Part shown: positions 1 through 50,029 of the stretch, in pieces
How the letters are laid out: each line of letters opens with the position of its first letter
How positions within the stretch are numbered: the stretch's first letter is position 1
DNA from: Eledone cirrhosa
Taxonomy: Eukaryota
Reading direction: 5' to 3'
NCBI GenBank assembly: GCA_964016885.1
Contig: OZ024740.1
Location: 375,596,001-375,660,000, forward strand
Length of the DNA stretch: 64,000 bases
Program-made: the position numbers and the translations under genes
The notes under the pieces: generated by a model
The model's database searches: none
Told to the model about the DNA's origin: nothing
What the model saw: only the letters and a program-made list of their open reading frames with translations

Positions 1-1216
1 CCCTGGAAATACTCTACGCCACAGACCATATCTTAAACAAAAAATCTGAGGCAATTTCGGCTTGTAAACATAAATTGCACAAAACTTTCCTGTATTACAG
101 CCCCACGTCATACCCTAACGGATAGTACGATCTATACGTGGATATTTTACGTCTTGATGTGGGAGCTAAGTATATGTTTGTTTATTCCTTTACTTATTTG
201 CATAGGTAAGTATATTTTACCCGTATGTTTTGTGAAAGTACGTATACTTTCTCGTACGTATATTTGATTGTTATGGCGTATAATTTTATATATTCTGGTA
301 CATATGGTTTGGCTATGTGTATACGGGAGTTTTGCGTCTGTGTGAGTATGCAGTTCGTACGTATGGTGCGTGTGTGTATATGCGTACTTCATGTTTTAGT
401 TGACTTACGTCTCAGAACATTCGTGTATTTATATATAGGTATGTGTGTGCGCTTGTTATATACGTATTTATTTATTTATATACGTTTATATAATTATTTA
501 TTTATTTGTATACACGCATACACACACACACATATTTATATGTGCGTGGTTTTGTATACCTATGGTAAGTTTTTGCGTATGCTTGTGTATGTACGTATTT
601 GTTTGCGTGTATGTATTTATTTATTTCTATTACTTCTGTATTGTATTTATTTACTTTGTTCTTAACTCTGTAGCGGAGATTCATTTGGTCTCCTAGTTAG
701 AATTTTAGTCTACGACTTCTGCTATACCATTTACGTGGTTGTGTTTTTGCGTGCTATTGTTCTCCACGCTTCACATATGACGTATTATCTTCGTTTTTTC
801 GTTCATTGCCAGAGAACGTCACTATGCACCACCTAAGGGAACAATAGTCTATGGTCTCTTTCATACCATATGACGTGGTTCTGTCTTTGCGCGTAATTGT
901 TTTTCACCGCTCCTATTAAAGACGTATTATTCGTTCTTTCCCGTTCTTTGCAGGCGAACGTTTCCACGAACCAAAGTATCGTCTTCCTGTCTTCCTCCGG
1001 TTGCAACGTTTTTTGAAATATCCAGTTCTGCGTTTACAGATTGACTTTGTTAGTTTCAGAAGATCCCGTTAAGGGTGAAAGCAGCGATTCTTTGCTTAAA
1101 CTTTAATCTGTTATTTTAATAAATATTTGCTCTACGGTTCTTATATATTTGATATATATTTATCCTTATCGAGCCCTCTTTGGATTTTAGTCTTCAAATT
1201 TATTATGATTACTATC
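1..1216 (+). mobile_element. Penelope-like element, 3' part (end of GIY-YIG ORF, 3' UTR, pLTR); runs off the window start
   Basis: Frame 3..125 reads LEILYATDHILNKKSEAISACKHKLHKTF...*, the PLE endonuclease C-terminus. Homologous to 1397-2540 (minus) and 16158-17020. Ends at a (TA)n tract. Confidence 0.85.
1052..1102 (+). ncRNA. Type I hammerhead ribozyme variant (core CAGAAGA) in PLE pLTR
   Basis: AGTTT-CAGAAGA-TCCC gttaa GGGT-GAA-AGCA gcgattctt TGCT-T-AAACT. Stems I, II and III pair; predicted triplet CUU. Confidence 0.6.
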
Positions 1217-1396
1217 TATAAATATATATATATATTTATATTTATTAATATATATTTATATTTATTAATATATATATCTATATATATATATATATATCTA
1301 TATCTATATATATATATATCTATATATATATATCTATATATATATATATCTATATATCTATATCTATATATATATATCTATATATATATATTTATA
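1217..1396. repeat. Degenerate (TA)n/(TATC)n microsatellite
   Basis: Directly visible; separates two tail-to-tail PLE copies. Confidence 0.95.
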
Positions 1397-1417
1397 TTTA
1401 TTAAAATAACAGATTAA

Positions 1418-1468
1418 AGTTTAAGCAAAGAATCACTGCTTTCACCCTTAACGGGATCTTCTTAAACT
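1418..1468 (-). ncRNA. Hammerhead copy in 3' pLTR with C3A change (probably inactive)
   Basis: Reverse complement of the 1052-1102 motif with core AAGAAGA. Confidence 0.5.
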
Positions 1469-2411
1469 AACAAAGTCAATCTGTAAACGCAGAAGTGGAT
1501 ATTTCAAAAAACGTTGCAACCGGAGGAAGATAGGAAGACGATTCTTTGGTTCGTGGAAACGTTCCCTGGCAAAGAACGGGAAAAAAACGAATATAATACG
1601 TCATTAATAGGAGCGGTGAAAAACAATTACGCACAAAGACAGAACCACGTTTATGGTATAAAAGAAGTCGTAGACTAATGTTCTGTTAGGTGGTTCATAG
1701 AGACGTTCTCTGGCATTGAACGGATAAACCGAAGATTATACGTCATATGTGGAGCGTGGAGAACAATGACACGCAAAGACAAAACCACGTAAATGGCATA
1801 GCTGACGTCGTAGACTAAATTTTAACTAGGAAACCGAATGAATCTCCGCTTCAGAGTTAAGAATAAAGTAAATAAATACAATACAGAGGAAATAGAAATT
1901 AAATAAATGCATACGCACATGCAAATACGTATATACACAAGCATATGCAAAACACTTTCCATAGATATACAAAACCACGCACATATAAATATATGTCTGT
2001 GTGTGTGTGTGCGTGTATACAAATAAATAAATAATTAAATAAACGTATATAAATAAATACATACGTATATAACAAGCGCACACACATACCAACATGTAAA
2101 TACACATATGTTCGGAAACGTAAGTCAACAAAACATGAATACACAAATACACACACCCTACATACGTTCGAACCTGCATACTCACGCAGACGCAAATATC
2201 CCGTATACACATAACGAAACCATATGTACCAGAATATATAAAAAATGTATACGCCATAACATAAACAATCAAATATACGTATGAGAAAGTATACGTACCT
2301 TCACAAAACATACAGGTAATATATACTTACCTATGCAAATAAGTAATGGTATAAACAAAACATATACTTAGCTACCACATCAAGACGTAACATATCCACG
2401 TATAGATCGTA

Positions 2412-4489
2412 CTATCCGTTAGGGTATACTGTGGGGCTGTAATACAGGAAATGTTTGTGCAATTTATGTTACAAGCCGAAATAGCCTCAGATCTTTTGTT
2501 TAAGATGTTGTCTGTGGCGTAGAGTATTTCCAGGGCCTCAGCGGCGCAGAGGTCATACGGTCTTTTATTTCCGCTATACGATCTAGCACTAGCTAGGATC
2601 TCCAAGTGTAACTTAAATTGGGTGTGGTTGTCTTTTAGACTTCAGATATAAGCTGAACGTGACGTCATATTCCTTCTTAGAAGGTAACGAAAAGAATGGG
2701 TATGCATGTAAAGACGCTACTTGAATCTATTGGCGGTTAACCCTATGTAGGCCCTACGGGTGTGGGTGTTTCAACCTTACATTTGTAGACAATGTTACTA
2801 CAGAGATATTTCCCGGATAGGGAGCAATCAACCCGATTCCTACAATTACAGTTAGTACTAACTACAGGGTTGCATGTGTTCCTACGGCTAGGTAGTTTAG
2901 CTAAATGTTAAGCTGTGATGTTATGTGCAAGGTTAGGAGTCGTAGCTTAAGAAATTGTAATAGTATTTCTATTAAACATTTTACTATATTTATGTGTAGA
3001 GGGAAAATGCTTCGGAATAAGGGAAAGAAAGATCTTAGCTAATGGTGTGGCCACCTCCATATTATATGGTGGGTTATACCAACAAATGCGATGGGATCTA
3101 TTTCTTCTAGGTCTATTTTCGTACTCTGCATATGCAACCTTATCGACAAATCCACTCCGAGCAAGAGCTTCATTGTAATATGTGGAATGGTCGTTGAAAA
3201 TATGCTCGTTAGTAGATAGACGGGAAAGCCTCAACGAAACGTTTCTTACCAGGTTCTTGGTTACGCTGGCAGGATGGTTGGAATGCTTACTTATGTAATT
3301 CAGCGTATCATTCGGCTTTCTATACGGGTAATACAACCCATTCGATAAATTGAGGGTAACGTCGAGGTAATTAACGACCGAGAGATTGGGCTCACCCATA
3401 TAGAGAGGTTGAAGCCTTTTAAATAAGGCTGTGAGTTCTTTTCTGAACCTGTCACAAGCACGAGGTCCGCACTTAGTCATGGTCAAAAGACGATCATCAC
3501 GGTACAAACCACCGCCCGCGTTGGGGAATTCGTCCTTGATAGAGAAAAGAAGGAAAAGGCAGATAAGATCAGTAACCTCCGCAAATCCAAATAGAGTTGT
3601 CGAAATTAATCACCGACTTACGGGCATTGAGGATGACATCAACTTCGAAATCCTTAACCACCGTGAGTGTTTGAGCGAAATTGATAGCTCTAAGGAGAAG
3701 TGGTAAAGTGATGGAGGAGTAGTAATTGTTGATGTCAAATTGGATAAAACGGCAATGTTCCTTGTTGCATATGCCGTTGAACCAATCAATCACTGCGAAA
3801 GAATTGTTCCACAGTGCAAGAGGGGCCAAACCTCTAATTTCAGGTATAATTCTATCAAGAATCCTTTTACTAAGTCTACCTAAATCGGACTTCGTAGTGT
3901 TAATAATCCGAATAGAGGGGTTGTTAGGAAAATTGGATTTGTGATCCTTCAGAGTAAAGTGGGGAGAAATAGGGTCCAGAGGTACGGTCCGGTCCAGGAT
4001 GTTGAGATCAGAGGTGATTTTAAACCCAGCATCGTTGATTTCATTGATGACGCACCGATTAGTTTTACGGTAATCCTTAGTTACATCATTATGTAGTAGT
4101 TGATGGTAAGTACTGCGCTCCACTTGATATAGGTTGCCAGTTTTGTCGGAATGGACGTGCAGGGCATTAGAATCCTTAATAGAACGAATTCTATTCTTCA
4201 GGTCCTGCTGGGAGGAATTGCTCCTATTCCGAAATGTGATACTCTGTATGAGTTCCAAGACATCATTTTTGAAGGGAAGCAATGCTGGGTTACACGGGGG
4301 GTTATTATAGGTTTTAAACCCAAATTTATACTATATGTTGTCTGCTTTTCGCTGATTATCGAAATAAAAGGCACGCCAACGCAACCTTTTAATGAACGCG
4401 TCTGTTCTCTGTATCAGGAGTTTTAGGTATATTTTCCCGCTTGGTACGGGTATGTTCTTTGTAGAAATATTCAGGTGTTGTTTCTGCAT
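2412..4489 (-). pseudogene. PLE reverse transcriptase / GIY-YIG endonuclease ORF with stops, frameshifts and a deletion
   Basis: Motifs in order: MQKQHLNISTKNIP..FIKRLRWRAFYF; HSDKTGNLY; FDINNYYSSI; GGLYRDD; NYLDVTLNL; YISKHSNHP; CWYNPPY; CNCRNRVDC..IVYKC; YIGLTANRFK; LC..E..LNKRSE. Part of RT motif B is missing near 3580. Confidence 0.92.
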
Positions 4490-4643
4490 GATGAATATAA
4501 GTCAATAGAGTGCTCAACCGAGCGAGCCAAGTAGTAATAATAATAAATTTGAAGACTAAAATCCAAAGAGGGCTCGATAAGGATAAATATATATCAAATA
4601 TATAATAACCGTAGAGCAAATATTTATTAAAATAACAGATTAA

Positions 4644-4694
4644 AGTTTAAGCAAAGAATCGCTGCTTTCACCCTTAACGGGATCTTCTGAAACT
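4644..4694 (-). ncRNA. Hammerhead variant (CAGAAGA) in 5' pLTR
   Basis: Identical to 1052-1102 on the minus strand, ~155 nt upstream of the ORF ATG at 4489. Confidence 0.6.
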
Positions 4695-4734
4695 AACAAA
4701 GTCAATCTGTAATCTTCAAATTTATTATTATTAC

Positions 4735-4803
<69 letters not shown>

Positions 4804-5340: not shown

Positions 5341-5398
5341 TTCATTTACCAGTCGTTTCTGGAAAGCAAACAAATCTGCTTTCAGTCATCAGAATGAA
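5341..5398 (-). ncRNA. Type I hammerhead motif
   Basis: TTCATT-CTGATGA-ctGAAAGCA..TGCTTTCca-GAAAC gactg GTA-AATGAA. Same family as 10156 and 10574. Confidence 0.7.
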
Positions 5399-9865: not shown

Positions 9866-9909
<44 letters not shown>

Positions 9910-9916
9910 TATATAT

Positions 9917-10302
9917 ATGTGTGTGTTTGTGTTATTATGTGTATGTGTATGTATATTCATGTGTATATATACATATAAACATATGTATATATGTGTGTGT
10001 GTGTGTGTCTCTGTGTGTGTGTGTGTATATGTGTGTATGCATGTGTTTATATACTTATATATTTATTATCTTTGTCTCTTCTGCCTTCACCCTCTCTTTC
10101 ATATTCCTTATATTTTTGTTTTGAAATCCACATTCGATAAAAACACCAGGATATTTTCATTCTGATGACTGAAAGCAGATTTGTTTGCTTTCAAGAAAGG
10201 ACTGGTAAATGAAATAATTATCTCGTGTTCTTTATTACTATTAATCTCTGTAACCTACATAGAGCACTCTTTTTTCCTGGACCTTTCCGACGGAATTACT
10301 TC

Positions 10303-10350
<48 letters not shown>

Positions 10351-10720
10351 TTGTGTTATTATGTTTATGTGTATGTATATTTATGTGTATATATACATAT
10401 AAACATATGTATATATGTGTGTGTGTGTGTGTCTCTGTGTGTGTATGTGTGTGTATGCATGTGTTTATATACTTATATATTTATTATCTTTGTCTCTTCT
10501 GCCTTCAGCCTCTCTTTCATATTCCTTATATTTTTGTTTTGAAATCCACATTCGATAAAAACACCAGGATATTTTCATTCTGATGACTGAAAGCAGATTT
10601 GTTTGCTTTCAAGAAAGGACTGGTAAATGAAATAATTATCTCGTGTTCTTTATTACTATTAATCTCTGTAACCTACATAGAGCACTCTTTTTTCCTGGAC
10701 CTTTCCGACGGAATTACTTC

Positions 10721-10725
<5 letters not shown>
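9917..10725 (+). repeat. Two tandem ~418 bp units, each with a hammerhead motif (10156-10213, 10574-10631)
   Basis: Near-identical units with TTTCATT-CTGATGA...GAAA..GTA-AATGAAA, separated and flanked by (TA)n. Confidence 0.85.
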
Positions 10726-10751
<26 letters not shown>

Positions 10752-38739: not shown

Positions 38740-38775
<36 letters not shown>

Positions 38776-38783
<8 letters not shown>

Positions 38784-41700
38784 CAAATAACGAAACGAAA
38801 TTAAATTTCGTTTCGTTTGTAACTCACTTTTGTATGACTGACGCTTAAACAATTAAGTTAAAAATGTACATCCACATATGTATACTGAAATACTAGTATG
38901 CATATGAATACACACACGTATACATATGTAGATGTACCAAGTCTTTCACTGGTTACTTTACTGTGAGTATCCAGCTATTCTGTATGTAAACACACAGACA
39001 AACCGGTTTTTAGAGTCATACTGGTTTTTGAGGAAACACCTTTCCTCTATTCTCCAGAAAGCCAGACATATGCATACTAGTATTTCAGTATACTTATGTG
39101 GATGTACATTTTTAACTTAATTGTTTAAGCGTCAGTCATACAAAAGTGAGTTACAAACGAAACGAAATTAAATTTCGTTTCGTTATTTGTTTTTATCGTC
39201 TCCGTTGAACCGGTACGTACTCACACTCTATGCAAATTAGTCTGCCCACTACTAATTTTCATAGAAAAAGCATATAACGATATGTGCTTTTACGATTCTC
39301 CAGAAAGGCCGGTAGATAGGTAAATATTGCTGATAAGTTGTAACAACAACGAAACTAGTTCAATATTCTTTGTCTGGCTTTCAGAAGAATAGAGGAAAGG
39401 TGTTTCCTCAAAAAACCAGTATGACTCTAAAAACCGGTTTGTCTGTGTGTTTACATACAGAATAGCTGGATACTCACAGTAAAGTAACCAGTGAAAGACT
39501 TGGTACATCTACATATGTATACGTGTGTGTATTCATATGCATACTAGTATTTCAGTATACATATGTGGATGTACATTTTTAACTTAATTGTTTAAGCGTC
39601 AGTCATACAAAAGTGAGTTACATACGAAACGAAATTTAATTTCGTTTCGTTATTTGTTTTTATCGTCTCCGTTGAACCGGTACGTACTCACACTCTCTGC
39701 AAATTAGTCTGCCCACTACTAATTTTAATAGAAAAAGCATATAACGATATGTGCTTTTCCGATTCTCCAGAAAGGCCGATAGATTGGTAAATATTGCTGA
39801 TGAGTTGTAACAACAACGAAACTAGTTCAATATTCCTTGTCTGGCTTTCTGGAGAATAGAGGAAAGGTGTTTCCTCAAAAAACCAGTATGACTCTAAAAA
39901 CCGGTTTGTCTGTGTGTTTACATACAGAATAGCTGGATACTCACAGTAAAGTAACCAGTGAAAGACTTGGTACATCTACATATGTATACGTGTGTGTATT
40001 CATATGCATACTAGTATTTCAGTATACTTATGTGGATGTACATTTTTAACTTAATTGTTTAAGCGTCAGTCATACAAAAGTGAGTTACAAACGAAACGAA
40101 ATTTAATTTCGTTTCGTTATTCGTTTTTATCGTCTCCGTTGAACCGGTACGTACTCACACTCTCTGCAAATTAGTCTGCCCACTACTAATTTTCATAGAA
40201 AAAGCATATAACGATATGTGCTTTTACGATTCTCCAGAAAAGCCGATAGATAGGTAAATATTGCTGATGAGTTGTAACAACAACGAAACTAGTTCAATAT
40301 TCCTTGTCTGGCTTTCTGGAGAATAGAGGAAAGGTGTTTCCTCAAAAACCAGTATGACTCTAAAAACCGGTTTGTCTGTGTTTACATACAGAATAGCTGG
40401 ATACTCACAGTAAAGTAACCAGTGAAAGACTTGGTACATCTACATATGTATACGTGTGTGTATTCATATGCATACTAGTATTTCAGTATACTTATGTGGA
40501 TGTACATTTTTAACTTAATTGTTTAAGCGTCAGTCATACAAAAGTGAGTTACAAACGAAACGAAATTAAATTTCGTTTCGTTATTTGTTTTTATCGTCTC
40601 CGTTGAACCGGTACGTACTCACACTCTATGCAAATTAGTCTGCCCACTACTAATTTTCATAGAAAAAGCATATAACGATATGTGCTTTTACGATTCTCCA
40701 GAAAGGCCGGTAGATAGGTAAATATTGCTGATAAGTTGTAACAACAACGAAACTAGTTCAATATTCTTTGTCTGGCTTTCAGAAGAATAGAGGAAAGGTG
40801 TTTCCTCAAAAAACCAGTATGACTCTAAAAACCGGTTTGTCTGTGTGTTTACATACAGAATAGCTGGATACTCACAGTAAAGTAACCAGTGAAAGACTTG
40901 GTACATCTACATATGTATACGTGTGTGTATTCATATGCATACTAGTATTTCAGTATACATATGTGGATGTACATTTTTAACTTAATTGTTTAAGCGTCAG
41001 TCATACAAAAGTGAGTTACATACGAAACGAAATTTAATTTCGTTTCGTTATTTGTTTTTATCGTCTCCGTTGAACCGGTACGTACTCACACTCTCTGCAA
41101 ATTAGTCTGCCCACTACTAATTTTCATAGAAAAAGCATATAACGATATGTGCTTTTCCGATTCTCCAGAAAGGCCGATAGATTGGTAAATATTGCTGATG
41201 AGTTGTAACAACAACGAAACTAGTTCAATATTCCTTGTCTGGCTTTCTGGAGAATAGAGGAAAGGTGTTTCCTCAAAAAACCAGTATGACTCTAAAAACC
41301 GGTTTGTCTGTGTGTTTACATACAGAATAGCTGGATACTCACAGTAAAGTAACCAGTGAAAGACTTGGTACATCTACATATGTATACGTGTGTGTATTCA
41401 TATGCATACTAGTATTTCAGTATACTTATGTGGATGTACATTTTTAACTTAATTGTTTAAGCGTCAGTCATACAAAAGTGAGTTACAAACGAAACGAAAT
41501 TTAATTTCGTTTCGTTATTCGTTTTTATCGTCTCCGTTGAACCGGTACGTACTCACACTCTCTGCAAATTAGTCTGCCCACTACTAATTTTCATAGAAAA
41601 AGCATATAACGATATGTGCTTTTACGATTCTCCAGAAAAGCCGATAGATAGGTAAATATTGCTGATGAGTTGTAACAACAACGAAACTAGTTCAATATTC

Positions 41701-44700
41701 CTTGTCTGGCTTTCTGGAGAATAGAGGAAAGGTGTTTCCTCAAAAACCAGTATGACTCTAAAAACCGGTTTGTCTGTGTTTACATACAGAATAGCTGGAT
41801 ACTCACAGTAAAGTAACCAGTGAAAGACTTGGTACATCTACATATGTATACGTGTGTGTATTCATATGCATACTAGTATTTCAGTATACTTATGTGGATG
41901 TACATTTTTAACTTAATTGTTTAAGCGTCAGTCATACAAAAGTGAGTTACAAACGAAACGAAATTAAATTTCGTTTCGTTATTTGTTTTTATCGTCTCCG
42001 TTGAACCGGTACGTACTCACACTCTATGCAAATTAGTCTGCCCACTACTAATTTTCATAGAAAAAGCATATAACGATATGTGCTTTTACGATTCTCCAGA
42101 AAGGCCGGTAGATAGGTAAATATTGCTGATAAGTTGTAACAACAACGAAACTAGTTCAATATTCTTTGTCTGGCTTTCAGGAGAATAGAGGAAAGGTGTT
42201 TCCTCAAAAAACCAGTATGACTCTAAAAACCGGTTTGTCTGTGTGTTTACATACAGAATAGCTGGATACTCACAGTAAAGTAACCAGTGAAAGACTTGGT
42301 ACATCTACATATGTATACGTGTGTGTATTCATATGCATACTAGTATTTCAGTATACTTATGTGGATGTACATTTTTAACTTAATTGTTTAAGCGTCAGTC
42401 ATACAGAAGTGAGTTACAAACGAAACGAATTTAATTTCGTTTCGTTATTTGTTTTTATGGTCTCCGTTGAACCGGTACGTACTCACACTCTATGCAAATT
42501 AGTCTGCCCACTACTAATTTTCATAGAAAAAGCATATAACGATATGTGCTTTTACGATTCTCCAGAAAGGCCGGTAGATAGGTAAATATTGCTGATGAGT
42601 TGTAACAACAACGAAACTAGTTCAATATTCCTTGTCTGGCTTTCTGGAGAATAGAGGAAAGGTGTTTCCTCAAAAACCAGTATGACTCTAAAAACCGGTT
42701 TGTCTGTGTGTTTACATACAGAATAGCTGGATACTCACAGTAAAGTAACCAGTGAAAGACTTGGTACATCTACATATGTATACGTGTGTGTATTCATATG
42801 CATACTAGTATTTCAGTATACATATGTGGATGTACATTTTTAACTTAATTGTTTAAGCGTCAGTCATACAAAAGTGAGTTACAAACGAAACGAAATTTAA
42901 TTTCGTTTCGTTATTTGTTTTTATCGTCTCCGTTGAACCGGTACGTACTCACACTCTCTGCAAATTAGTCTGCCCACTACTAATTTTCATAGAAAAAGCA
43001 TATAACGATATGTGCTTTTCCGATTCTCCAGAAAGGCCGATAGATAGGTAAATATTGCTGATGAGTTGTAACAACAACGAAACTAGTTCAATATTCCTTG
43101 TCTGGCTTTCTGGAGAATAGAGGAAAGGTGTTTCCTCAAAAAACCAGTATGACTCTAAAAACCGGTTTGTCTGTGTATTTACATACAGAATAGCTGGATA
43201 CTCACAGTAAAGTAACCAGTGAAAGACTTGGTACATCTACATATGTATACGTGTGTGTATTCATATGCATACTAGTATTTCAGTATACTTATGTGGATGT
43301 ACATTTTTAACTTAATTGTTTAAGCGTCAGTCATACAAAAGTGAGTTACAAACGAAACGAAATTTAATTTCGTTTCGTTATTCGTTTTTATCGTCTCCGT
43401 TGAACCGGTACGTACTCACACTCTCTGCAAATTAGTCTGCCCACTACTAATTTTCATAGAAAAAGCATATAACGATATGTGCTTTTACGATTCTCCAGAA
43501 AGGCCGATAGATAGGTAAATATTGCTGATGAGTTGTAACAACAACGAAACTAGTTCAATATTCCTTGTCTGGCTTTCTGGAGAATAGAGGAAAGGTGTTT
43601 CCTCAAAAACCAGTATGACTCTAAAAACCGGTTTGTCTGTGTTTACATACAGAATAGCTGGATACTCACAGTAAAGTAACCAGTGAAAGACTTGGTACAT
43701 CTACATATGTATACGTGTGTGTATTCATATGCATACTAGTATTTCAGTATACTTATGTGGATGTACATTTTTAACTTAATTGTTTAAGCGTCAGTCATAC
43801 AAAAGTGAGTTACAAACGAAACGAAATTAAATTTCGTTTCGTTATTTGTTTTTATCGTCTCCGTTGAACCGGTACGTACTCACACTCTATGCAAATTAGT
43901 CTGCCCACTACTAATTTTCATAGAAAAAGCATATAACGATATGTGCTTTTACGATTCTCCAGAAAGGCCGGTAGATAGGTAAATATTGCTGATAAGTTGT
44001 AACAACAACGAAACTAGTTCAATATTCTTTGTCTGGCTTTCAGGAGAATAGAGGAAAGGTGTTTCCTCAAAAAACCAGTATGACTCTAAAAACCGGTTTG
44101 TCTGTGTGTTTACATACAGAATAGCTGGATACTCACAGTAAAGTAACCAGTGAAAGACTTGGTACATCTACATATGTATACGTGTGTGTATTCATATGCA
44201 TACTAGTATTTCAGTATACTTATGTGGATGTACATTTTTAACTTAATTGTTTAAGCGTCAGTCATACAGAAGTGAGTTACAAACGAAACGAAATTAAATT
44301 TCGTTTCGTTATTTGTTTTTATGGTCTCCGTTGAACCGGTACGTACTCACACTCTATGCAAATTAGTCTGCCCACTACTAATTTTCATAGAAAAAGCATA
44401 TAACGATATGTGCTTTTACGATTCTCCAGAAAGGCCGGTAGATCGGTAAATATTGCTGATGAGTTGTAACAACAACGAAACTAGTTCAATATTCCTTGTC
44501 TGGCTTTCTGGAGAATAGAGGAAAGGTGTTTCCTCAAAAACCAGTATGACTCTAAAAACCGGTTTGTCTGTGTGTTTACATACAGAATAGCTGGATACTC
44601 ACAGTAAAGTAACCAGTGAAAGACTTGGTACATCTACATATGTATACGTGTGTGTATTCATATGCATACTAGTATTTCAGTATACATATGTGGATGTACA

Positions 44701-47700
44701 TTTTTAACTTAATTGTTTAAGCGTCAGTCATACAAAAGTGAGTTACAAACGAAACGAAATTTAATTTCGTTTCGTTATTTGTTTTTATCGTCTCCGTTGA
44801 ACCGGTACGTACTCACACTCTCTGCAAATTAGTCTGCCCACTACTAATTTTCATAGAAAAAGCATATAACGATATGTGCTTTTCCGATTCTCCAGAAAGG
44901 CCGATAGATAGGTAAATATTGCTGATGAGTTGTAACAACAACGAAACTAGTTCAATATTCCTTGTCTGGCTTTCTGGAGAATAGAGGAAAGGTGTTTCCT
45001 CAAAAAACCAGTATGACTCTAAAAACCGGTTTGTCTGTGTGTTTACATACAGAATAGCTGGATACTCACAGTAAAGTAACCAGTGAAAGACTTGGTACAT
45101 CTACATATGTATACGTGTGTGTATTCATATGCATACTAGTATTTCAGTATACTTATGTGGATGTACATTTTTAACTTAATTGTTTAAGCGTCAGTCATAC
45201 AAAAGTGAGTTACAAACGAAACGAAATTTAATTTCGTTTCGTTATTCGTTTTTATCGTCTCCGTTGAACCGGTACGTACTCACACTCTCTGCAAATTAGT
45301 CTGCCCACTACTAATTTTCATAGAAAAAGCATATAACGATATGTGCTTTTACGATTCTCCAGAAAAGCCGATAGATAGGTAAATATTGCTGATGAGTTGT
45401 AACAACAACGAAACTAGTTCAATATTCCTTGTCTGGCTTTCTGGAGAATAGAGGAAAGGTGTTTCCTCAAAAACCAGTATGACTCTAAAAACCGGTTTGT
45501 CTGTGTTTACATACAGAATAGCTGGATACTCACAGTAAAGTAACCAGTGAAAGACTTGGTACATCTACATATGTATACGTGTGTGTATTCATATGCATAC
45601 TAGTATTTCAGTATACTTATGTGGATGTACATTTTTAACTTAATTGTTTAAGCGTCAGTCATACAAAAGTGAGTTACAAACGAAACGAAATTAAATTTCG
45701 TTTCGTTATTTGTTTTTATCGTCTCCGTTGAACCGGTACGTACTCACACTCTATGCAAATTAGTCTGCCCACTACTAATTTTCATAGAAAAAGCATATAA
45801 CGATATGTGCTTTTACGATTCTCCAGAAAGGCCGGTAGATAGGTAAATATTGCTGATAAGTTGTAACAACAACGAAACTAGTTCAATATTCTTTGTCTGG
45901 ATTTCAGGAGAATAGAGGAAAGGTGTTTCCTCAAAAAACCAGTATGACTCTAAAAACCGGTTTGTCTGTGTGTTTACATACAGAATAGCTGGATACTCAC
46001 AGTAAAGTAACCAGTGAAAGACTTGGTACATCTACATATGTATACGTGTGTGTATTCATATGCATACTAGTATTTCAGTATACTTATGTGGATGTACATT
46101 TTTAACTTAATTGTTTAAGCGTCAGTCATACAGAAGTGAGTTACAAACGAAACGAAATTTAATTTCGTTTCGTTATTTGTTTTTATGGTCTCCGTTGAAC
46201 CGGTACGTACTCACACTCTATGCAAATTAGTCTGCCCACTACTAATTTTCATAGAAAAAGCATATAACGATATGTGCTTTTACGATTCTCCAGAAAGGCC
46301 GGTAGATAGGTAAATATTGCTGATGAGTTGTAACAACAACGAAACTAGTTCAATATTCCTTGTCTGGCTTTCTGGAGAATAGAGGAAAGGTGTTTCCTCA
46401 AAAACCAGTATGACTCTAAAAACCGGTTTGTCTGTGTGTTTACATACAGAATAGCTGGATACTCACAGTAAAGTAACCAGTGAAAGACTTGGTACATCTA
46501 CATATGTATACGTGTGTGTATTCATATGCATACTAGTATTTCAGTATACATATGTGGATGTACATTTTTAACTTAATTGTTTAAGCGTCAGTCATACAAA
46601 AGTGAGTTACAAACGAAACGAAATTTAATTTCGTTTCGTTATTTGTTTTTATCGTCTTCGTTGAACCGGTACGTACTCACACTCTCTGCAAATTAGTCTG
46701 CCCACTACTAATTTTCATAGAAAAAGCATATAACGATATGTGCTTTTCCGATTCTCCAGAAAGGCCGATAGATAGGTAAATATTGCTGATGAGTTGTAAC
46801 AACAACGAAACTAGTTCAATATTCCTTGTCTGGCTTTCTGGAGAATAGAGGAAAGGTGTTTCCTCAAAAAACCAGTATGACTCTAAAAACCGGTTTGTCT
46901 GTGTGTTTACATACAGAATAGCTGGATACTCACAGTAAAGTAACCAGTGAAAGACTTGGTACATCTACATATGTATACGTGTGTGTATTCATATGCATAC
47001 TAGTATTTCAGTATACTTATGTGGATGTACATTTTTAACTTAATTGTTTAAGCGTCAGTCATACAAAAGTGAGTTACAAACGAAACGAAATTTAATTTCG
47101 TTTCGTTATTCGTTTTTATCGTCTCCGTTGAACCGGTACGTACTCACACTCTCTGCAAATTAGTCTGCCCACTACTAATTTTCATAGAAAAAGCATATAA
47201 CGATATGTGCTTTTACGATTCTCCAGAAAGGCCGATAGATAGGTAAATATTGCTGATGAGTTGTAACAACAACGAAACTAGTTCAATATTCCTTGTCTGG
47301 CTTTCTGGAGAATAGAGGAAAGGTGTTTCCTCAAAAACCAGTATGACTCTAAAAACCGGTTTGTCTGTGTTTACATACAGAATAGCTGGATACTCACAGT
47401 AAAGTAACCAGTGAAAGACTTGGTACATCTACATATGTATACGTGTGTGTATTCATATGCATACTAGTATTTCAGTATACTTATGTGGATGTACATTTTT
47501 AACTTAATTGTTTAAGCGTCAGTCATACAAAAGTGAGTTACAAACGAAACGAAATTAAATTTCGTTTCGTTATTTGTTTTTATCGTCTCCGTTGAACCGG
47601 TACGTACTCACACTCTATGCAAATTAGTCTGCCCACTACTAATTTTCATAGAAAAAGCATATAACGATATGTGCTTTTACGATTCTCCAGAAAGGCCTGT

Positions 47701-47970
47701 AGATAGGTAAATATTGCTGATAAGTTGTAACAACAACGAAACTAGTTCAATATTCTTTGTCTGGCTTTCAGGAGAATAGAGGAAAGGTGTTTCCTCAAAA
47801 AACCAGTATGACTCTAAAAACCGGTTTGTCTGTGTGTTTACATACAGAATAGCTGGATACTCACAGTAAAGTAACCAGTGAAAGACTTGGTACATCTACA
47901 TATGTATACGTGTGTGTACTCATATGCATACTAGTATTTCAGTATACATATGTGGATGTACATTTTTAAC

Positions 47971-47976
<6 letters not shown>
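38776..47976 (+). repeat. Tandem array of 19 ~466 bp hammerhead-containing units (retrozyme-like satellite) with inverted partial unit at the left end
   Basis: HHR cores at 39330, 39797, 40264, 40728, 41195, 41662, 42126, 42592, 43058, 43525, 43989, 44456, 44922, 45389, 45853, 46320, 46786, 47253, 47717 (spacing 464-467). 38776-39068 is inverted. (TA)n on both flanks. Confidence 0.97.
39790..39834 (+). ncRNA. Minimal type I hammerhead ribozyme (representative intact copy; 13 intact and 6 G8A copies in the array)
   Basis: AATATTG-CTGATGA-GTTGT aaca ACAAC-GAA-ACTAGT-T-CAATATT: 7 bp stem I, canonical core, G10.1-C11.1, palindromic stem III, GUU triplet. Confidence 0.92.
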
Positions 47977-48023
<47 letters not shown>

Positions 48024-50029
48024 TATATACATATTCACAATAGATTATTAGAACCGTGGATCGGTCTACGAATTTGGAATATTTATGTTCACAGCTTCAA
48101 TATATATGTTTTACTATAAACTGTAATCAAAGAAATTGGACATAGGGGCAATTGGAATGTGAAAAATGAGCAGTGACCCCAGTTTCACACGAACTTGTTC
48201 TTGTTGTATTCCATGCGCCTATTTTATCATTTCTGCAAACGATGATGACGTATACTTTCCGCTTTTGTAAGCTTTGCCAATGGGCCGGTTATTTAGTGTA
48301 ATGGTAGCACATGAAATGTATCACACATCCACATGATTTTATATATATATATATATATATATACTCTCAGTTTTATTTTTGTAAGAACAAACATAAAAGT
48401 AAATTATAATCACTTAAAAGTATTTCTATTCAATGAGCTTATTCTGAATTCGAAATCACCTGACATAAAAACACACAACTTTATGATCTAGAGTATATGA
48501 TATATGAAGTACGAAACATTATTTGCGATTCGTTGTTTCACTAGTCATTTTTCTTGCATGAAAAGTAAATTTGTGGTATCATTGCAGAATGATTTTTGTC
48601 ATATCAACATCTCATTAGTGTGTTGAAATCTATCCTGTTCATGGAAATTGTTTCTTCGAACAAGGAAATACCTCATGCACAATGTATTTTATGAGATAGC
48701 TATAAGAAGCATTTGCAACATTCGTCTCTGCTTGCTACTGAGGAAGGTAGGTTTTACTGCTATTATGCTGATACGTCCAACATGAAATATTAACGCGAAT
48801 TTTCACAATAAGAAACATAATAATCAATAATGCTTCCATTTTCCTTTAGTGTGCATTTAATATTGGAATTCGTATCCCATGAGAAATTCTTAACTATTTT
48901 AAGCTCGGCAGTTTAAACAGTTTTGAGTAGCACATTCAACGTTAATGTTTTGAAAATATGTTCAGGTTGTGAAAACATCTCCTATCATTTCATCTTCAAT
49001 GTGAGAAAAATGAGGCTTCAATCTCCTTATCCAAAGGATGTTTGCTCATATTTTGAAATATTGTTGTATATTTGCGCTTCTGATCGACAATTACGGCCCG
49101 TTTAAGTAGCACAAATATGGAGGTTTCATTGTATTGCATACTTTATACGACTTTGCTTTTGCACATTCAGCCTTAGCCTATAATAAAACCATTTTGGGTT
49201 TTTTCCATGTCTTTAATTTATGAATGTTATGAATTAATATATCCATAAGCTGATAGGAATATGCGTCGAATATTTATTCCGTGACGAATAGGGAATAATT
49301 ATGAGCATTTCATATTAAGCTTGACGTAATCATCATCTTCAATGAAGAATATATTGAGACAACTTTGGTATGAAGAATAATTAATGTATAGAAAGCTGAA
49401 CAAGCACCGAATACTAAAGTCATATTTTTATTTATATAGATATATGACATAAAATACATTCTTGGATGAGAAAATCAATACACACAATAAGAATGTATAT
49501 GAAACTGAAAAGGCAATAATGTTAAAAAGTTCAATGAATAACATCAAAGTTTATGTCATAATAGTATATATTTGTTATCATGGAAAACAAGATCATATAT
49601 TAAATATATAAAAGTTACTCAGGAGAATAATAAATAAACGGCTTTGGGGTAACGGAAATTAAAATCCATTTGTTAAATATTTCATTATACTTAAATCCAT
49701 TACTTAGCTATAGGTTAGAATATTTGATGTATATGGAAGATCCAAAATTCAAGATGAAATAGGTGAAATGATAATTATACCCCTCGAAAAGAATTTTATG
49801 CCTTCTTTTCCGTGCTTGGAATAATGTATCGTTCGATATTTATAGTGAGCGAAGCAAAATATAAAATACATCACGTAATAATAAGCATCTTTGATTTATA
49901 TACAAAAAATATTTCTTCAAAGTGCATTTCAATTAATATACGCTTACAGATAATTTAGTATAATGTTAAGATAAACGTCAACTGCATGCTTCTATGTATA
50001 CAAATATCATGCACATGTGTATTTACTTA

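Follow-up and report, generated by a model that had tools for sequence, protein, structure and literature searches.

The window, i.e. the whole analysed stretch of 64,000 nt, contains a tandem array with a period of approximately 466 nt, which repeat analysis places at positions 39067–47976, with its length as assembled. The units of 464–467 bp have a GC content of about 0.35, and no open reading frame of at least 110 aa was found across the array. A hammerhead ribozyme motif with stems I–III is present in each unit, giving 19 cores, 13 of them intact (CTGATGA) and six with the G8A change (CTGATAA). Together with an inverted arm, the array makes up a two-armed insertion, of which it is the long arm; a (TA)n run, the inverted arm, the long arm and another (TA)n run follow each other. 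The following features were delineated:

38741–38778: (TA)n run to the left of the insertion, belonging to the target microsatellite
38779–39068, minus strand: inverted short arm, unit positions 54–343, 3′ end outward, equal to the family base haplotype
39067–39317, plus strand: inner partial unit, positions 216–466, with a C-type tail
39318–42113, plus strand: two 1398-bp 3-mers (A/D hybrid, B, C)
42114–47704, plus strand: three 1863–1864-bp 4-mers (A′, D, B, C)
47705–47976, plus strand: terminal partial unit, positions 1–271, an A head followed by an ancestral-type stretch
47976–48034: (TA)n run to the right of the insertion, belonging to the target microsatellite
39330, 40728, 42126, 43989, 45853 and 47717, plus strand: CTGATAA cores of units 1, 4, 7, 11, 15 and 19
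39335 (unit 1), also 40733, 42131, 43994, 45858 and 47722, plus strand: the G8A base
39786–39837, plus strand, core at 39797: example of an intact type I hammerhead (unit 2), delineated from sequence and folds

All 19 cores, and the G8A change in units 1, 4, 7, 11, 15 and 19, were found where the initial annotation had put them. The distances between successive G8A cores (1398, 1398, 1863, 1864 and 1864) and the order of units were also borne out, and none of 300 shuffles of unit order equalled the observed periodicity when lags and split were freely chosen. On average, units of the same phase differ in 1.1 alignment columns versus approximately 9 at other lags. The two 3-mers differ from each other by a single base and copies of the three 4-mers by 4–6 substitutions, which sets every block apart. 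Blocks are 99.7–99.9% alike versus 4–15 differing columns between monomer types, which makes the array a higher-order repeat. The span initially given for it (39323–47754) was too narrow, as it overlooked the partial unit starting at 39067, the end at 47976, the inverted arm and both (TA)n flanks. The proposed formula ABC ABC ADBC ADBC ADBC A is right in its order, but its “A” stands for more than one kind of unit: in the 3-mers (units 1 and 4) it is a hybrid with an A head and a D tail, in the 4-mers it is A′. Both 3-mer blocks have in common three private changes that are absent from the 4-mers. Terminal unit 19, with its A head and ancestral continuation, matches neither the A of the 3-mers nor A′. 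The mosaics are nested, since A′ and B have two changes in common, while D and B share two others. Wherever G8A occurs in the array, the extended stem I carries two further changes, which in unit 1 lie at 39369 and 39383.

The hammerhead of unit 2 has a 7-bp stem I with a bulge and a long extension, a 5-bp stem II and a stem III of only 1 bp closed by a palindromic loop, with a predicted cut between 39827 and 39828, following a GUU triplet. An Rfam scan of the window returned no match at gathering scores. The predicted fold of the monomer (−152.6 kcal/mol, z −10.2) was not equalled by any of 100 shuffles, and co-folding of two minimal motifs gave a crosswise dimer of −21.4 kcal/mol versus −9.0 for one copy. 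According to passages in PMC4209133 and PMC7229834, hammerheads with a weak palindromic stem III cleave poorly alone and well as dimers. Since stem III is here a single palindromic base pair, the ribozyme of the array likely acts as a dimer, and by the geometry of the modelled crosswise dimer each core would cut the site of its partner. The two changes linked to G8A weaken the predicted stem I (local folds of −32.5 and −25.6 versus −39.9 and −45.2 kcal/mol). No relevant paper on G8A in hammerheads came up in literature searches. By analogy, G8A is nevertheless likely to damage cleavage in these units, because G8 is the proposed general acid (in the part of PMC6155905 that deals with it) and the G8C and C3G changes abolish cleavage (in the experiments described in PMC11167929). 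The ladder of 466- and 930-nt products predicted initially from the G8A pattern is uncertain, because the ribozyme is of a likely dimeric type and such a ladder presupposes transcription and cutting of a unit's own site. In transcripts of the array, if there are any, one core per three or four would be weakened by G8A, and the unit's own site would not necessarily be spared. Comparison of four sequencing runs with positions 39100–39900 revealed family variants only; one run gave a 496-letter contig closing on itself with a period of 466, as both tandem DNA and a circle would. Gaps in the cover of some private markers in these runs carry no weight as evidence.

The repeat is dispersed. Genome-wide (3.0 Gb), 5,179 exact intact cores were counted versus 17 G8A cores, 6 of the latter in the array, and a second family motif gave 6,817 matches. 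Among the fetched loci, which were taken from search lists and are not a random sample, the outer ends cluster at unit positions 342–346 (67 of 132) and 270–276 (58 of 132), 125 in all, far from the ribozyme cut at unit position 43; TA-rich runs adjoin 120 of the 132, and in 52 of 59 two-armed insertions the two ends belong to different clusters. In our array both flanks are (TA)n, which masks any target-site duplication. Several insertions (L031, L055, C2:123.83 Mb and L037), each with a haplotype of its own, have 16–20 full units that are distributed over the two arms and almost identical in sequence. Such arrays are likely the trace of a single copying event, in which one monomer template was copied repeatedly. 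One arm at L054 changes between two family-wide haplotypes, and the terminal units of both arms have changes in common at L048 and L050. RNA-level mixing does seem to occur in this family, and multimeric or switched templates may have a part in it.

Judged by its sequence, the 466-bp repeat is a non-LTR retrozyme, a new family of a known class. As in the metazoan non-LTR retrozymes described in the consulted parts of PMC7229834 and of preprint 10.64898/2026.07.22.740005, the units are non-coding, low in GC and a few hundred bases long, with one type I hammerhead each; copies are dispersed in thousands, arrays range from dimers to more than 100 units and the monomer is strongly self-paired. The unit is slightly above the 150–450 bp given by Cervera and de la Pena 2020 (PMC7229834) and within the 51–972 bp given in the preprint. 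The main text of both, in the parts consulted, contains no higher-order structure, two-armed insertions with one tail or arms of identical haplotype, while local amplification by unequal crossover is already invoked in the preprint (Li, Clavereau and Pollet 2026). A literature search for higher-order repeats with hammerheads retrieved PMC5909420 and PMC2808323, the latter of which mentions them in a reference only. The single-pair stem III and palindromic loop are also found in axolotl HHR_Amex1, the newt satellite and dimeric type I hammerheads, the monomers of which are poor while the dimers are active (passages of PMC7229834, PMC4209133 and PMC6155905). Unlike the axolotl and newt hammerheads treated there, the motif considered here is a predicted one, has a different sequence and uses a GUU triplet.

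The insertions have one inverted copy, a single terminal tail and two internal start sites, an anatomy which matches the Penelope signature as far as sequence can tell. Penelope-like insertions, in the portions of PMC8557442 and PMC11167929 that describe them, have an inverted 5′-truncated copy and a one-end tail, two internal starts of reverse transcription, AT-rich or (TA)n targets and extension of both strands. The differences from these elements are that the 466-bp repeat has no open reading frame and that its tail is about 70 bp versus 30–40.

A family which we take to be Penelope-like from its reverse transcriptase and GIY-YIG-like motifs lies in the window at 1390–4735; it is abundant in the genome and has open frames of 713 aa. 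Pfam assigned no family to its fragments or to the full frame. At the seven loci compared, no real sequence in common with the 466-bp repeat was found, which gives no support to this family as an autonomous partner; the matches were confined to low-complexity sequence and a single diverged repeat nearby.

Core changes are rare in the family. Genome-wide, 53 were counted at four core positions and 22 at four others, versus 5,179 intact cores, and 340 changes at four context-matched non-core positions versus 6,817 matches (the first 100 of the 340 are among the matches listed); the units are not independent, so the comparison of core with non-core counts is indicative. Variants outside the core often occupy whole insertions, i.e. 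both arms, while none of 90 distinct both-arm variants lies in the core, which by itself is not significant (P 0.12). There are counter-cases: at L050 each arm has C3G in its terminal units, and at L051 G12A is found in both of the units covered. From the distribution of changes, it is likely that copying mostly requires cleavage and that damage to the core, like the G8A of the array, follows later. For comparison, in the in vitro assays of PMC11167929 ribozyme activity was dispensable for the anole Penelope-like element, whereas in the 466-bp family core changes look depleted among copied templates.

The diagnostic changes of the array are almost entirely confined to it. Genome-wide searches placed inside the array 10 of 10 matches for one marker, 6 of 6 for the two G8A-linked stem I changes and 14 of 15 for a third marker. 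The other 11 G8A cores belong to 10 loci with other haplotypes and do not carry the linked changes; in two long arrays among these loci, G8A is confined to a single unit. The inverted short arm has none of the seven array markers testable in it, and its sequence over unit positions 54–343 is also present at L017 and L090 as the base haplotype. Being only 290 bp long and equal to the D-type head, the short arm alone does not rule out a 4-mer template.

To what extent the G8A rhythm is special can be judged from other long arrays of the family. Twelve were compared: four have no repeated non-fixed marker, one has a single such marker, and seven are mosaic, their local period ranging between 2 and 8; these seven comprise two arrays chosen for core changes, four found via control patterns and the G8A array itself. 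The second arm of all seven contains 0–1 full units, and across the 12 arrays only 4 of 183 testable repeated markers also occur in the short arm. In five arrays with repeated markers, none of them picked for core changes, the 11 core positions were matched by 3 of 165 repeated markers (1.8%, with 2.4% expected by chance). The probability that one of 13–17 markers lands in the core is 27–33%. At the fetched loci the core was changed in 10 of 412 single-unit changes and in 8 of 210 repeated ones, 4 of these 8 coming from loci chosen for that reason. An array of more than 115 units (C1:95.63–95.69 Mb) carries C3A and G8U periodically, as passengers; the array at C1:95.94–95.97 Mb has a period of 8 and then 7, while none of its 36 markers lies in the core; rhythms with no repeated core change were also registered at C1:5.74 Mb, L134 and L037. 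A connection of rhythms with dead cores, suggested by L035, L048 and C5:39.87 Mb, was discarded, as control-picked arrays have core changes at the chance rate. Since long arrays of the family often have such rhythms and the core is changed at the chance rate, the G8A rhythm is most likely devoid of special meaning and serves as a neutral marker of array turnover.

Based on these data, the rhythm most probably arose by DNA-level duplication after insertion, with G8A as a passenger. A Penelope-like reverse transcriptase/endonuclease would have copied a monomeric RNA, probably circular, into DNA from both strands of the target, and the start of reverse transcription at two fixed internal sites would have given two arms of one haplotype. 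Point changes would then have arisen in single units and unequal exchange yielded hybrids, B possibly being composed of an A′-like 5′ part and a D-like 3′ part. G8A and the two linked stem I changes may have arisen on one unit head, after which a 4-unit block would have been amplified. Finally, loss of one unit from a 4-mer could have produced the 3-mer, which would have gained three changes before its duplication. By parsimony, the simplest scheme, though not a unique reconstruction, has rounds of unequal exchange alternating with point mutation and takes the 3-mer as a product of the 4-mer; G8A is likely a single passenger mutation. The initial annotation had offered two origins. DNA-level amplification is the favoured one, although its order, a 3-mer followed by a 4-mer, is probably reversed, the 3-mer being a 4-mer minus one unit with three later changes. 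Rolling-circle copying of a multimeric template is disfavoured, because the markers are private and absent from the other arm and the period shifts inside the array. The nested mosaic units cannot be the product of a single enzyme pass round one circle.

According to the disfavoured alternative, the 4-unit rhythm dates from the insertion itself, when a 4-unit circular RNA made from a diverged source array would have been reverse-transcribed in rolling-circle fashion, with G8A helping this multimer to escape cleavage. We consider this unlikely. It is improbable, too, that the 4-mer is the footprint of a 1.86-kb circle round which a Penelope-like reverse transcriptase ran repeatedly, its source array being lost or residing on an unassembled haplotype, and there is little likelihood that the G8A unit impaired dimeric cleavage in such a circle. 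The near-perfect periodicity would agree with this origin, as would the compatibility of the short arm with a D-type head; the relevant part of PMC7229834 describes multimeric retrozyme RNAs in axolotl and a circular dimer in vitro, and C3G at L050 and G12A at L051 point to occasional copying of templates with a damaged core. However, the assembly contains no source or daughter locus with the markers of the array, three of the four cores in the block are intact, and the markers of other mosaic arrays are almost absent from the second arm. Moreover, the period passes from 4 to 3 via a hybrid with its own changes, and unit 19, which would be the first copied, matches neither template, so that DNA events are needed even if an RNA circle was copied. 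A copied multimeric circle would be expected to leave a constant period, a source locus and markers common to both arms; instead, a change of period via a hybrid, private markers and 0 of 7 markers in the short arm were found. If the circle did exist, higher-order repeats could arise in one retrotransposition event.

That the periodicity or the copy number is an assembly artefact is very unlikely. Nearly identical blocks of 1.4–1.9 kb are difficult to assemble and the copy number is that of the assembly, but each block has private differences (1 between the 3-mers, 4–6 between the 4-mers), both ends lie in (TA)n and are of the kind usual for the family, and the nested 4–15-column differences between unit types do not resemble read errors. 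Switching of the reverse transcriptase among co-existing monomer RNAs in one insertion, with later duplication of the mix, finds a parallel in the haplotype change within one arm at L054; the haplotypes there, however, are family-wide, while the tested markers of our array occur nowhere else, bar 1 of 15 matches, which leaves this route with a very low probability. Equally hard to credit is a selected pattern, in which dead ribozymes at regular intervals would adjust the proportion of monomer to dimer RNAs from the locus: G8A is indeed linked to two more changes weakening stem I, but core changes occur among repeated markers at the chance rate and vary between arrays or are absent.

The array can be compared with higher-order repeats of satellite DNA. 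In primate alpha satellite diverged monomers are arranged in blocks, the identity between blocks exceeds that between monomers, and shorter variant blocks arise by deletion of whole units. Unlike alpha satellite, the array described here is only 9 kb long, its monomers diverge by 1–3%, and it was born from a recent retroelement insertion. The G8A rhythm itself is of little importance; the family is a useful natural record, and the anatomy of its insertions is more telling. Fresh insertions having two arms of one haplotype with a Penelope-type tail at one end support the proposed, yet unproven, Penelope-driven copying of retrozyme RNA. Core changes are depleted among copied templates and free to spread later, which suggests that cleavage is needed for mobilisation. 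The stages seen in the family, from a fresh insertion to arrays of more than 100 units with higher-order structure, represent the birth of a satellite from a retrozyme.

Within the array at 39067-47976, which is built of the dispersed 466-bp hammerhead unit, the marker at unit position 319 (window 39151-39180 and equivalents) corresponds to an inversion of the middle part of a perfect hairpin. For this reason, and since it was found in the C units and also in one A' unit (unit 11), this marker may be recurrent or converted.

Besides this array the window contains the following elements:

1-1200, plus strand: stretch related to the Penelope-like element of 1390-4735
1390-4735, minus strand: frameshifted, presumably Penelope-like element with (TA)n runs on either side
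5356-5392, minus strand: further copy of the motif of the period-418 repeat
9882-10751: second repeat, period 418; every unit carries a CTGATGA...GAAA motif, at 10162 and 10580

The period-418 repeat is unrelated to the 466-bp one and probably represents another ribozyme-bearing family. The element at 1390-4735 was named from RT and GIY-YIG-like motifs; genome-wide its family gave 50,135 first-look candidates, several of which have open 713-aa frames, and its terminal repeat carries a hammerhead-like motif with U4 replaced by A. Elsewhere in the genome, at locus L140, a diverged relative of the 466-bp repeat (66% over 218 bases) adjoins the retroelement frame; it has a hammerhead-like motif, which ends in the same palindromic stem III.

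At each of the loci L048 and L050, the two arms have changes in common in their outermost units (C3G among them at L050) that are missing from the inner units, perhaps because one arm converted the other or because the template was mixed. In one arm of locus L054 (872-3288) one family haplotype changes to another via a hybrid unit, which suggests template switching during reverse transcription.

A 50-unit array at 39.860-39.885 Mb of contig C5 of the same genome, G000 (loci L144, L065, L049, L066), has few markers, one of them a family-wide polymorphism, and its periods shift among 2, 3 and 5; for a mixed RNA template it is a better candidate than the window array. The array at 95.63-95.69 Mb of contig C1 (G000; L064, L063, L041-L044) belongs to an older subfamily and combines several nested periods with more than 115 units, a lower bound as the covered sequence stops short of its left end; it is a retrozyme turned satellite.
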